Source of the DNA: Anaerolineales bacterium
Lineage (GTDB): Bacteria > Chloroflexota > Anaerolineae > Anaerolineales > Villigracilaceae
Assembly (NCBI GenBank): GCA_017985935.1
Contig: JAGNWT010000001.1
Span: 32,871-96,870 of the forward strand
DNA: 64,000 nt
Direction of reading: 5' to 3'
Made by a program: the position numbers and the translations under genes. How positions within the stretch are numbered: position 1 is the first letter of the stretch; every line of letters begins with the position of its first letter. The notes under the pieces were generated by a model that did not search any database, was not told where the DNA came from, and worked only from the letters and a program-made list of their open reading frames with translations. Shown one piece after another: positions 34,942 through 44,721 of the stretch.

Positions 34942-35340
34942 TTATTGCAACTCGGTTTCGCAGGTAATGAAAGTGTCAGTGCCCTGACCTCCCAAACAGA
35001 CATCGGCATCATCACCGCCGGTTATCTGATCGTCTCCATTACCGCTCAAAATGCAATCATCGCCGCCCAATCCATCGATCGTATCGACACCGGAACTTCC
35101 AAAGATCAGGTCGTTGCTTGCCGTGCCGTTGATCGTGCCCGCCCCTCTCACGATGTTCGTCAAGGTCATGCTGCAAACCGCCGGCTTGAGATCTTGGGCG
35201 CTCACTGAAAGAATAATATTATCCACGCTCGATGGTTCCGCCAGCATGCTGGAGGCGAATGCAGCCAGCACGCTGAAAAGGATCAGCATGACCCATCCAA
35301 AAACAATGACCCGAAAAAAAAAGCGGAACTTCATCGTCAA
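34942..35340 (-). CDS. Secreted protein with RTX-like Ca-binding nonapeptide repeats
   Basis: Signal peptide ending AAFA; GSSGVDTIDGLGGDD, SGNGDDQITGGDDAD, GGQGTD. Confidence 0.75.
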   Translation of the reverse strand: MTMKFRFFFRVIVFGWVMLILFSVLAAFASSMLAEPSSVDNIILSVSAQDLKPAVCSMTLTNIVRGAGTINGTASNDLIFGSSGVDTIDGLGGDDCILSGNGDDQITGGDDADVCLGGQGTDTFITCETELQ

Positions 35341-41040: not shown

Positions 41041-41191
41041 CACTGGTGGCTCCAATTAACTGAAATGTAGATTGGATTATACAAGTGAAATGGGAAGTTG
41101 GCAACCCTGATATACAACAGATTCCTTTAATTGAAGCAAAGTCATCTTGAAACTGGAAACATCCGTTATAATCACGCTTCGGAGTAAACAA

Positions 41192-42292
41192 ATGCCAGCC
41201 ATCTTTCCCTTTACAGCCATCGTAGGACAGGAGCGCATGAAACGCGCTCTCATTCTCAACGCCGTCGATACCCGCATCGGCGGAGTGTTGATCCGCGGCG
41301 AACGCGGTACAGCCAAATCGACCGCTGCGCGTTCACTCGCCGCACTTCTGCCGCACGTCAAGATCGTGCAGGACTGCCGCTTCGGATGCGACCCTGAAAA
41401 ATCCAGCACATGGTGTACCGAATGCAAGGAACGCTACGCCGCCGCGAAAAAACTTCCCACCGCGGAGCGCGCCACACCGTTCATCAACCTCCCCGTTTCC
41501 GCCACCGAAGACCGCGTGGTCGGAACGCTTGACATCGAGAAAGCCATTCAAAAAGGCGAACGCCATTTTGAACCCGGTGTGCTCGCCAGTGCCAACCGCG
41601 GGTTGCTCTACATCGACGAAGTGAATTTGTTGGACGATCACGTGGTGGATATCCTTTTGGATTCTGCGGCGATGGGCGTGAACACGGTCGAACGTGAAGG
41701 CATTTCCTTTGCCCACCCGGCGCGTTTCATCCTCGTTGGAACGATGAATCCTGAAGAAGGAGATCTCCGCCCCCAATTGCTGGATCGCTTCGCCCTCTCG
41801 GTTGAGATCGTCGGCATCCGTGATGCACGCGAACGCGTCACCATCATGGAACGCAACATCTCATACGAAAGAGACGCCGACGCCTTCCGAAAGAACTGGC
41901 TTCCCAAGGAAGATGAGCTCTCCGCCAAGATCGCCCGCGGACGTGAGCTCGTGGACCAGGTCACCCACACCAGCCGCGACCTGCTCTCCATCGCCGCATT
42001 GACCTCCTCCCTCAACGTGGACGGTCACCGCGCAGACCTTGTGATCCTCAAAGCCGCGCGCGCTGAAGCCGCCTTTGAAGGACGCACCAAGATCAACGAT
42101 CACGATATCGCTCTTGCCGCAGAGCTTGCTCTGCCGCATCGCATCAAACGCACGCCTTTCCAACAGGCCGAGATGACCGCCGAGCAACTGCAGGAACGCA
42201 TCGAGCAGCTCGCGGGTCAATCGGTCCCGAGCGAAGCTGACGATGAATCCGAAAGCAAGCAGGATGGCGAAGGCGAGGAAAAAAAAACTTAA
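41192..42292 (+). CDS. Mg/Co chelatase subunit I-like AAA+ ATPase (0-frame product of a frameshifted chlD)
   Basis: FPFTAIVGQ, GERGTAKST, LYIDEVNLLDDH, NPEEG.LRPQLLDRF; stops at TAA directly after an A9 run. Confidence 0.9.
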   Translation: MPAIFPFTAIVGQERMKRALILNAVDTRIGGVLIRGERGTAKSTAARSLAALLPHVKIVQDCRFGCDPEKSSTWCTECKERYAAAKKLPTAERATPFINLPVSATEDRVVGTLDIEKAIQKGERHFEPGVLASANRGLLYIDEVNLLDDHVVDILLDSAAMGVNTVEREGISFAHPARFILVGTMNPEEGDLRPQLLDRFALSVEIVGIRDARERVTIMERNISYERDADAFRKNWLPKEDELSAKIARGRELVDQVTHTSRDLLSIAALTSSLNVDGHRADLVILKAARAEAAFEGRTKINDHDIALAAELALPHRIKRTPFQQAEMTAEQLQERIEQLAGQSVPSEADDESESKQDGEGEEKKT

Positions 42293-43254
42293 AGCTCGAA
42301 GATGAACAGCAGGAAGGTCCCCAGCAGGGAAATCCCGAGCCCATGGAACAGCAGGAAGTTTTCGCAAGCACGAATGCGAACTGGTGGGACGGCGGACAAA
42401 AAGTAAAAGCTGGTGAGACCTTCCAGCCTCGTAAACTTAATACCCCTCTCGATAAATTAACCCGCAAGCAGGCCGGTCGTCGTTCGCTCACCAAAACAGA
42501 GCGCAAACACGGACGGTATATCAAAGCGCGTCCCGCCGGCGATAAATTGAACGACATCGCTTTCGATGCCACGTTCCGCGCTGCCGCGCCTTTCCAAAAT
42601 CAACGCACAGAAGAACGCAAAACCTTGGCCTTCTCCATTAAACGCAGCGACCTTCAACGCAAGGTGCGTGTGAAGCGCGTTGCGAATCTGGTTTTGTTCC
42701 TTGTGGATGCTTCATGGTCGATGGCGGTTGCCGAGCGCATGAATGCCACGAAAGGTGCGATCCTTTCGCTGCTGACCGATGCATATCAACGCCGCGACCG
42801 CGTCGGCTTGATCGTCTTCCAAAAAGACCGCGCCACGCTGGTACTCTCCCCCACCAACTCAGTTCAACTGGCACAGCGCGCATTGATGGATATTCCCGTC
42901 GGTGGCAAGACCCCGCTTTCGGCAGGGTTGTTCATGGCGCACGATGTGCTCACGCATGAAAAGCACACCCACCCCGATGTGGAACCGTTGCTCATCGTGC
43001 TGACCGATGGTGCGGGCAATGTCTCGATCGGGACTTTACCGCCGCAGGAAGAGTCCTACAAATTCGCAGAGTTGATCGCGGGCGAAAAGACTCGCTCGGT
43101 CGTCATCAACATGGAGCACGCCGCCTTCGACCAGGGACTTGCCCAGCAACTCGCCGACCACCTCAAAGCGCCGTGTTATTCCCTGAGCGACTTGAAAGCC
43201 GAGAGCTTGTACGCCACAGTTAGAGATGAGATGGCAAAGCCTGTCAAGAAATAA
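41192..43254 (+). CDS. chlD: Full-length chelatase subunit D (AAA+, acidic linker, vWA) via a -1 frameshift at A9 (42279-42287)
   Basis: The -1 frame is open from the A run (..KNLKLEDEQQEGPQQGNPEPMEQQ..) into the 42343-43254 ORF with MIDAS motif DASWSM. Predicted about 687 aa. Confidence 0.75.
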
Positions 43255-43257
43255 ATA

Positions 43258-43294
43258 AAAAGACCTCCGGGCAAAGATGCTCGGAGGTCTTTTT
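43258..43294. terminator. Bidirectional terminator
   Basis: AAAAGACCTCCG...CGGAGGTCTTTT between convergent genes. Confidence 0.7.
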
Positions 43295-43305
43295 ATTTTA
43301 AGTTC

Positions 43306-44721
43306 CTATGAATCAAACCCCAATCCAAGGGCATCCAAAGTCTTCAACCAAAGATTTCTCTTCCCGCCGTTCTCATCTGCGCGATTGAGAGACCAGCGTG
43401 TAAAGTTGATGATCGGCGAGCGGAACGGTTCTGGCGGAAACGGGAAGGGTTTCGACTTTACCATTTGCAACTCAGTGCGCTCGGTCTTTTTTCCTTCGAG
43501 CAGATCCAACATCACTTGCGCACCAAAGCGGGACGCGCCCACTCCAAGACCGGTGTAACCCAAGGCATATGCCACTTTGCCGCCGTAGGCTTGTCCCCAA
43601 AAAGCGGTGTAACGCGAGCAGGTGTCGATCACGCCGCCCCAGGCATGGGTGAAACGCAGACCTTTCAGCGTGGGGAATGTTTGGAAGAAGTGCTCAGCCA
43701 ATCGGGCGAAAGACTCGGGGCGATTCTCCAGATGCGGAGCCACCCCATTATTGGAAAAATAGATCGCGTCGAATCCGCCCCAGAGGATCCGTCCATCTGC
43801 CGTGGTGCGATAGTAATGAAATTGATTGCCATAATCGCCGATGCCCTCGCGTCCGTGCCAGCCGATGGACGCCCGCTGTTCCGCAAAAAGCGGCTCGGTC
43901 ATCAGTACGTAATCATAAACAGGCACAACATAGAACGAGAGACGTTTCAGCAAAGGCGGGAATGCGTTCGTGGCGAGCGCAACTTTTTTAGACTCGACTT
44001 GACCATAGCTTGTTTTGACAATGACTGATGAGCGCTTCTCTTCGAGACCTGTCACCTGCGTGCCTTCGAACAAGCGGACTCCAAGCTCCAGGCAGGCACG
44101 CCTCAGTCCCCACGCCAACTGCGCGGGGTTGACCATCGCCACAGACGGGTCAAAGACCGCCGCGATGTAGGTCGGCGAATGGACTCGCGCGCGAGTCTGC
44201 TCTGCATCCAGAAACTGGATCTGCTCGCCATATTTGGCGGAGTGCTCGGCTTCTTCGCGCAATTCTTCGATCTGATATTCCTCGTTGGCAACAACCAGTT
44301 CACCCGAGCGGATGAAATCACAATCGATCTTGAATTGTTTGATGGTGTCTTCGATGCCGTCCAGATTCTTGTGCCCCATCTCCACCAGTTTGGACATTTC
44401 CTTCGGCCAGCGGTTCAATCCATTCTGGAAGGAGTGGGTCAGCGAGGAGGCGCAAAATCCGCCGTTGCGCCCACTGGCACCGCTGCCCACCTCTCCCCCT
44501 TCGAGCAAAACCACATCACACTCGGGGTCGGCCTGTTTCGCCATCAACGCCGTCCACAAGCCGGTAAACCCTGCGCCGATCACCACCAGATCAGCCGTGA
44601 TGTTTTCAGTCAACGCAGAAGCAGGCACAGGCTTGTTCGGGTCATCCAACCAGAACGGCATGTGCTTCACATCCGCAAGAGACCGCAAGGTCTCAGGGCG
44701 CGGAGTGTTCGAGAAAATCAT
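43306..44721 (-). CDS. FAD-dependent oxidoreductase (DAO/PuuB-like amine oxidase family)
   Basis: VIGAGFTGLWTA, GASGRNGG, GYTGLGVG. Confidence 0.85.
   Translation of the reverse strand: MIFSNTPRPETLRSLADVKHMPFWLDDPNKPVPASALTENITADLVVIGAGFTGLWTALMAKQADPECDVVLLEGGEVGSGASGRNGGFCASSLTHSFQNGLNRWPKEMSKLVEMGHKNLDGIEDTIKQFKIDCDFIRSGELVVANEEYQIEELREEAEHSAKYGEQIQFLDAEQTRARVHSPTYIAAVFDPSVAMVNPAQLAWGLRRACLELGVRLFEGTQVTGLEEKRSSVIVKTSYGQVESKKVALATNAFPPLLKRLSFYVVPVYDYVLMTEPLFAEQRASIGWHGREGIGDYGNQFHYYRTTADGRILWGGFDAIYFSNNGVAPHLENRPESFARLAEHFFQTFPTLKGLRFTHAWGGVIDTCSRYTAFWGQAYGGKVAYALGYTGLGVGASRFGAQVMLDLLEGKKTERTELQMVKSKPFPFPPEPFRSPIINFTRWSLNRADENGGKRNLWLKTLDALGLGFDS

Follow-up and report, generated by a model that had tools for sequence, protein, structure and literature searches.

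The chlD gene of an uncultured Anaerolineales bacterium of the phylum Chloroflexota, carried on a 64,000-nucleotide stretch of GenBank assembly GCA_017985935.1 (contig JAGNWT010000001.1, positions 32,871 to 96,870 of the forward strand; hereafter "the window"), very probably encodes two proteins that are separated by recoding at a run of nine adenines (A9). Ordinary decoding would yield a 366-residue ChlI-like AAA+ ATPase that ends one codon past the run. In a fraction of expression events, a −1 shift on A9 would carry decoding through an acidic linker and into a vWA domain with a metal-ion-dependent adhesion site (MIDAS), giving a 687-residue ChlD-like protein. One gene would thus supply both partners of a ChlI/ChlD-type AAA+ motor, and the genome has no other chlI. 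The gene is an fs-chlD (frameshifted chlD) of an organism close to 'Ca. Villigracilis', and its kind has already been published, this class included (Antonov et al. 2013 NAR, PMC3711429; Kuznetsov et al. 2022, PMC9227772), as the first-pass annotation of the sequence had noted for poly-A frameshifted chlD genes.

Anatomy and conservation of the split gene

The open reading frame (ORF) that begins with ATG at 41192 ends with the codons GAG GAA AAA AAA ACT TAA, in which A9 occupies positions 42279-42287 and the stop positions 42290-42292. The −1 frame contains no stop from before the A-run until the TAA at 43252-43254. A slip of −1 at the in-phase heptamer A_AAA_AAA (42280-42286) would join 365 and 322 residues into the 687-residue product, with the junction reading ...EEKK-NLKLEDE.... 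The first-pass annotation had given the same end of the AAA+ frame, the same codons and product sizes, and a −1 frame running free of stops through the acidic linker into the vWA domain, all of which is correct.

The 366-residue ORF harbors the Pfam domains Mg_chelatase and AAA_lid_2, and its matches in the PDB include ChlI (8osf, E 5e-98), BchI (1g8p, E 2e-97), and 6l8d. The −1 continuation contains a Pfam vWA domain and matches the integrin-I domain of BchD in 2x31 (E 3e-18). When joined, the two parts cover positions 1-640 of the 641 positions of NCBIfam TIGR02442, a single-chain ChlI-ChlD family named 'putative cobaltochelatase'. The residues expected of such a protein are conserved in 111 distinct homologues: the ATPase motifs comprise Walker A (GERGTAKS), Walker B (LLYIDEVN), sensor 1, and the arginine finger, as well as sensor 2, which 109 of them keep. 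In the vWA domain, conservation extends to the MIDAS residues (DASWS in 111/111, GGKTPL in 110/111) and to the TDG motif.

The closest named record is that of 'Ca. Villigracilis proximus', at 94% identity. Across the genus and the order, the ATPase lies in frame 0 and the vWA domain in the −1 frame in 49 of the 50 loci from which both halves were recovered, and in these 49 the A-run is located 10-62 nt ahead of the frame-0 stop. Nearly all of 80 further loci from named metagenome-assembled genomes (MAGs) show the same split −1 layout. Pooling yields 114 distinct junctions, every one of which has A_AAA_AAA in the correct phase, so the conservation of run and stop in relatives that the first-pass annotation had proposed to check does hold. 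The runs are mostly A9, with some A10, a single A8, and two cases of A7, such that A9 or A10 is found in 110 of the 114. At the level of the class, a chlD gene occurs in 266 of 301 genomes (206 of the 217 of high quality), in both split and in-frame forms.

Both halves of the gene are under strong purifying selection, with dN/dS values of 0.03-0.09 overall and 0.04-0.06 for the downstream half. Even between members of the genus, synonymous divergence approaches saturation (dS about 0.9-2.8). Lysine is encoded elsewhere in these genes by 54% AAA and 46% AAG, and AAG is found in the A-run at no locus examined. The whole 3.82-Mb genome has only 12 A or T runs of at least nine nucleotides, and the A9 of chlD is the sole run among them that joins two long ORFs (381 codons on the 5′ side and, in the −1 frame, 324 on the 3′ side).

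Functional recoding into products of 366 and about 687 residues, as originally proposed, is strongly supported because the A-run and the stop are conserved, both halves are under purifying selection, an independent start is not conserved, and the joined protein matches a single family from end to end. The anatomy of the gene, its conservation, and the selection on it are shown by the sequences, and we infer the occurrence of the slip and its efficiency.

Several points weigh against this reading. The joined protein scores 776.8 bits against TIGR02442, slightly under the curated cut-off of 779.45. The junction counts overstate independence, as many of the 114 come from closely related lineages. 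No stimulatory RNA structure is found at the window site, although the literature calls one usual for fs-chlD. Finally, the reporter cassettes assayed in Escherichia coli derive from other species, and these assays cannot separate transcription from translation (PMC3711429).

The resemblance to the published fs-chlD genes is otherwise close: the ChlI-like and vWA ORFs overlap, the latter lying in the −1 frame, the poly-A shift site (A_AAA_AAR) is under purifying selection, and a separate chlI is absent. The window gene differs from them in lacking the downstream structure, in belonging to an undescribed MAG, and in two further respects: whatever the codon phase, the run among its relatives has at least nine A's, and the unproductive +1 frame is shut as well. 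Recoding itself has been published and the window gene adds little to it. The value of chlD is that of a clean, deeply conserved case of recoding that annotation pipelines split into two genes.

Ribosome or RNA polymerase as the source of the probable −1 shift

The −1 shift can arise by two routes, which lead to an identical protein. In the first, RNA polymerase would add one A on the 9-bp homopolymer; in the second, two lysyl-tRNAs would slip by −1 on the in-phase A_AAA_AAA. The comparative signature, namely A9, no hairpin, and stops in both unproductive frames, leans slightly toward slippage by RNA polymerase, which we give about an even chance of being the main source here. The two routes may also act together.

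That the same two products arise purely or mainly by −1 programmed ribosomal frameshifting (PRF) on A_AAA_AAA is a serious contender, at only a little less than an even chance. PRF is the published name for this family, and the heptamer is in phase at all junctions, although for the window the phase says nothing because any run of at least nine contains the heptamer automatically. More telling are the shortest runs, which fit the X_XXY_YYZ pattern exactly: A7 begins at codon position 3 in two loci (L047 and L127) and A8 at position 2 in one (L128). L127 and L128 additionally have a 10-bp hairpin 7 nt 3′ of the run, which is the canonical spacing for −1 PRF. No downstream hairpin is found in the A7 relative L047. 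Run lengths seem bimodal, being either a bare in-phase heptamer (accompanied by a hairpin in L127 and L128) or at least nine with no hairpin.

A purely ribosomal mechanism is less easily reconciled with the remaining evidence. Neither the downstream fold (z 0.18) nor the upstream fold (z −0.52) is significant at the window site, and downstream structure in 116 relatives averages a z of −0.08. The run is at least nine long in all three codon phases; phase 2 would require only seven, and there too it keeps to 9-10, as observed in eight lineages. A −1 slip of the ribosome never leads into the +1 frame, yet that frame too is shut quickly: in the window, frame 0 closes after one codon and the +1 frame after five, and 101 of the 114 junctions (which are not independent) have a +1 stop within 8 codons, versus a background median of 18. 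The in-frame relatives described below show a related pattern, in which genes with A9 or A10 close both alternative frames within 0-9 codons, and five of six with A7 close only the −1 frame.

Nine A's or T's is the length given for efficient slippage by bacterial RNA polymerase (PMC5009743). With chlD cassettes in E. coli, the share of shifted product was 10% for a run of 7 A's, 40% for 9, and 63% for 11 (PMC3711429). The nearest functional parallel is dnaX, in which a slip on an A-run allows one gene to make a short and a long component (tau/gamma) of an AAA+ complex. E. coli achieves this by −1 PRF and Thermus thermophilus by transcriptional slippage, and the polarity is reversed in some species, so that both polarities exist, as among the chlD genes of Anaerolineae (Atkins et al. 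review, PMC5009743). The T. thermophilus gene resembles the window gene in its 9-nt homopolymer and in the stops in both non-zero frames. The presence of two tRNA-Lys species has been linked to polymerase slippage in the dnaX of T. thermophilus (PMC5009743), and tRNA-Lys(UUU) and tRNA-Lys(CUU) are both found in the genome under study. In contrast to chlD, dnaX belongs to an unrelated protein family, and in E. coli and T. thermophilus it is the short form that needs the slip, whereas in the window chlD it is the long form.

Alternatives to recoding and the in-frame relatives

The junction could instead separate two ordinary neighboring genes, a chlI and a vWA gene with its own start at ATG 42343, the A-run being incidental. 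This ATG lies just 5′ of a conserved NWWDGG block and is retained in closer relatives, and some downstream initiation was reported for other clusters in 2013 (PMC3711429). Nonetheless, an independent start is improbable. No Shine-Dalgarno-like motif precedes ATG 42343, in agreement with the first-pass annotation, which saw no convincing ribosome-binding site for the downstream ORF. The methionine is kept in the closer relatives only, other lineages having L, T, H, S, N, Q, or A in its place. Between the A-run and the NWW[DE]GG block, 31 of the 114 junctions contain neither ATG nor GTG nor TTG, and a Shine-Dalgarno-like motif is found there in just 7. The −1 frame, moreover, is never closed between the A-run and the vWA domain at any locus, and in several genomes its open stretch starts right at the run, which leaves the two ORFs 16 nt in common. 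The conservation of the run at synonymous sites and the colinearity of the joined protein with TIGR02442 likewise favor a shift over a second start.

A sequencing or assembly error in the homopolymer, or a freshly broken pseudogene of an in-frame chlD, is scarcely credible. A9 runs are error-prone on some platforms, and frame-breaking deviants do occur, mostly in long-read 'MFD' MAGs (L089, L103, L123, and L125), where the breaks look like indel or homopolymer errors; in L125, for example, A9 stands where relatives have A10, which places the vWA part in the +1 frame. Long-read assemblies with such errors can mimic or hide recoding sites. The combination of A9, CTTAA, and the frame relation nevertheless recurs in more than 70 independent assemblies, including two single-contig genomes (G009 and G031) with the standard A9 split form, and the downstream half is under strong purifying selection. 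Chance, assembly error, and a pseudogene are excluded, as far as comparison allows, by the conservation, the selection, and the uniqueness of this run in the genome. Equally far-fetched is phase variation at the DNA level, in which replication slippage on A9, a mutable homopolymer, would toggle the long product in the population: A9 is present in all but one of about 36 species of the genus, the exception (A10 in L006) is a G-to-A substitution that keeps the frame relation rather than an indel, and in-frame alleles are absent within the genus.

In-frame chlD genes do occur in other families of Anaerolineae, a circumstance that the first-pass annotation had named as one that would refute recoding. 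Among 20 loci with long open frames, 19 are in frame and one (L136) is split; together with the gene of G053, the only genome of its family, in which the in-frame form was assessed through the class-level sample, this makes 20 in-frame genes. Of the 20, 18 (L038 of G053, L134-L150 apart from L136, and L152), which encode 675-698 residues, have retained an in-phase heptamer within a run of A7, A9, or A10 that falls at codons 361-367. In these genes a −1 stop follows 0-9 codons after the run, and four of them read A9-TGA. The persistence of the A-run and of a nearby −1 stop in these genes supports the logic of two products and does not refute it. In the in-frame genes, the long protein would come from ordinary decoding and a short one, of the size of ChlI, from a slip, a reversed polarity like that found for dnaX.

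The in-frame genes fall into two kinds with respect to their alternative frames. Among those with A9 or A10, the +1 frame is shut within 2-5 codons in 10 of 12, and both the −1 and +1 frames are shut within 0-9 codons in 10 of 12. Those with A7 belong to one family; in 5 of 6, no stop interrupts the +1 frame for 49 codons, and a predicted GC-rich stem follows the run after a few nucleotides. A second ChlI-like gene is lacking from most genomes with an in-frame A9/A10 gene. A distant ChlI-like paralogue (37-40% identity) is found in the A7 family as well as in G053 and G333.

The Anaerolineae series, comprising split and in-frame genes with either A7 and a hairpin or A9/A10 without one, provides a natural comparison set for the question of ribosome versus polymerase. 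In-frame chlD genes of reversed polarity are not mentioned in the literature examined, a scope outside which stands the 2020 article by Antonov (MBE), reportedly on fs-chlD genes.

Predicted function and genomic setting

On the strength of their sequences, the products most likely form an AAA+/vWA motor of the ChlI/ChlD type. The ATPase is 50-55% identical to the ChlI structures in the PDB (8osf, 6l8d, and 1g8p), the vWA domain resembles that of BchD (2x31), and all ATPase and MIDAS motifs of the ChlI/ChlD (BchI/BchD) Mg-chelatase motor are intact. The ATPase differs from ChlI of Mg-chelatase in carrying a four-cysteine insert, CRFGC-x8-CTEC, at a place where cyanobacterial ChlI has no cysteines. 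This insert probably forms a metal-binding knuckle, and its metal may be zinc or iron.

The greater difference from Mg-chelatase and from the ChlID-CobN cobalt chelatase lies in what surrounds the motor. The absence of cobN/chlH from the window, remarked on in the first-pass annotation, extends to the whole genome, which is 96.6% complete and has no match to the CobN/ChlH large subunit (PF02514). It likewise lacks ALAD (PF00490) and the multiple methyltransferases of corrin synthesis, a single TP_methylase match being all that was found. Among 61 relatives, CobN/ChlH is present in one and ALAD in 16, being absent from the other 45, closed genomes included. A chlD gene is present in 53 of the same 61, and its presence thus does not track tetrapyrrole synthesis. 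The same genotype, with neither ChlH/CobN nor the pathways, has been termed 'stage 1' in Brevefilum fermentans, and fs-chlD is also described in other Anaerolineae, including Levilinea (PMC9227772); the homologues collected in this analysis include a Levilinea MAG (L122).

Given a genome without CobN/ChlH or ALAD and with only one TP_methylase, 'chelatase' is no more than a label of homology. The proposal that one gene gives both the I and the D chelatase subunits stands as regards the two products and finds no support as regards their role as chelatase subunits. The two proteins probably do not belong to a functioning Mg or Co chelatase, and their task as a pair is probably distinct from the classical chelation of Mg or Co. 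The question that the gene raises concerns the role of a ChlI/ChlD motor across a class that lacks the large subunit and mostly lacks tetrapyrrole synthesis. A joint reading can be advanced tentatively, in which runs of nine or more A's are devices for polymerase slippage, bare heptamers with a hairpin are ribosomal sites, the polarity has flipped repeatedly with the run kept, and the products are a housekeeping pair independent of the large subunit and of tetrapyrroles; taken as a whole, this combination is possible but rather doubtful.

Table 1. Features of the chlD gene and its immediate surroundings, in window coordinates
Feature	Coordinates	Strand	Basis or remark
Shine-Dalgarno-like GGAG	41181..41184	+	7 nt 5′ of the ATG of the AAA+ ORF; read from the sequence
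Frame-0 ORF, ChlI/BchI-type AAA+ ATPase, 366 residues plus TAA; predicted short product	41192..42292	+	Pfam and PDB matches, conserved motifs
Walker A GERGTAKS (residues 36-43)	41297..41320	+	Identical in 108/111 relatives; GERGTGKS in the other 3
Cys4 insert CRFGC-x8-CTEC (C62, C66, C75, C78)	41375..41425	+	Alignment with 8osf; motif in 104/111 relatives
A9, predicted slip site; in-phase heptamer A_AAA_AAA at 42280-42286	42279..42287	+	Sequence and junctions of relatives
−1 continuation: acidic/Pro-rich linker, NWWDGG block, ChlD-type vWA domain; 322 codons plus TAA; C-terminal part of the predicted 687-residue product	42286..43254	+	
Frame-0 stop TAA, one codon past the A-run	42290..42292	+	Read from the sequence
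+1-frame stop TGA, five codons past the A-run, shutting the other unproductive frame	42303..42305	+	Sequence and junction comparison
MIDAS motif DASWS, vWA domain	42706..42720	+	Identical in 111/111 homologues
Putative intrinsic terminator: 8-bp stem GACCTCCG/CGGAGGTC, 12-nt loop, then T-run	43262..43299	+	Read from the sequence

The gene is flanked upstream by a divergent rpsA (S1) and an M19 dipeptidase gene and downstream by a convergent gene for an FAD oxidoreductase (43306-44721, minus strand). The upstream neighbors are conserved among 80 loci (rpsA in 55, the M19 dipeptidase in 47, and a small ORF in 47), and the downstream genes vary. A search of the neighborhood of these 80 loci for a functional partner found no tetrapyrrole-related gene. 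The terminator in Table 1 was found by direct reading, its 12-nt loop having been missed by an automated scan with a loop limit of 8 nt. It probably ends both chlD and the convergent oxidoreductase gene, and chlD, closed in this way, looks monocistronic. An A-run flanks the terminator hairpin on its 5′ side (window 43258-43299), and the T-run lies on its 3′ side; the A-run could allow the terminator to act in both directions and so serve the convergent gene.

The other A9 and T9 runs of the genome were considered as recoding sites and rejected, none of them joining two long ORFs. The run at C34:33785 is followed by a small gene with its own start, and those at C95:28055 and at window 35314-35322 lie inside ordinary ORFs; from the latter run, no alternative-frame ORF extends. 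The run at 35314-35322 is a T9 on the minus strand that encodes FFF in an N-terminal hydrophobic segment, and the ORF that carries it (34942-35340, minus strand) encodes a small protein with Gly/Asp-rich repeats.

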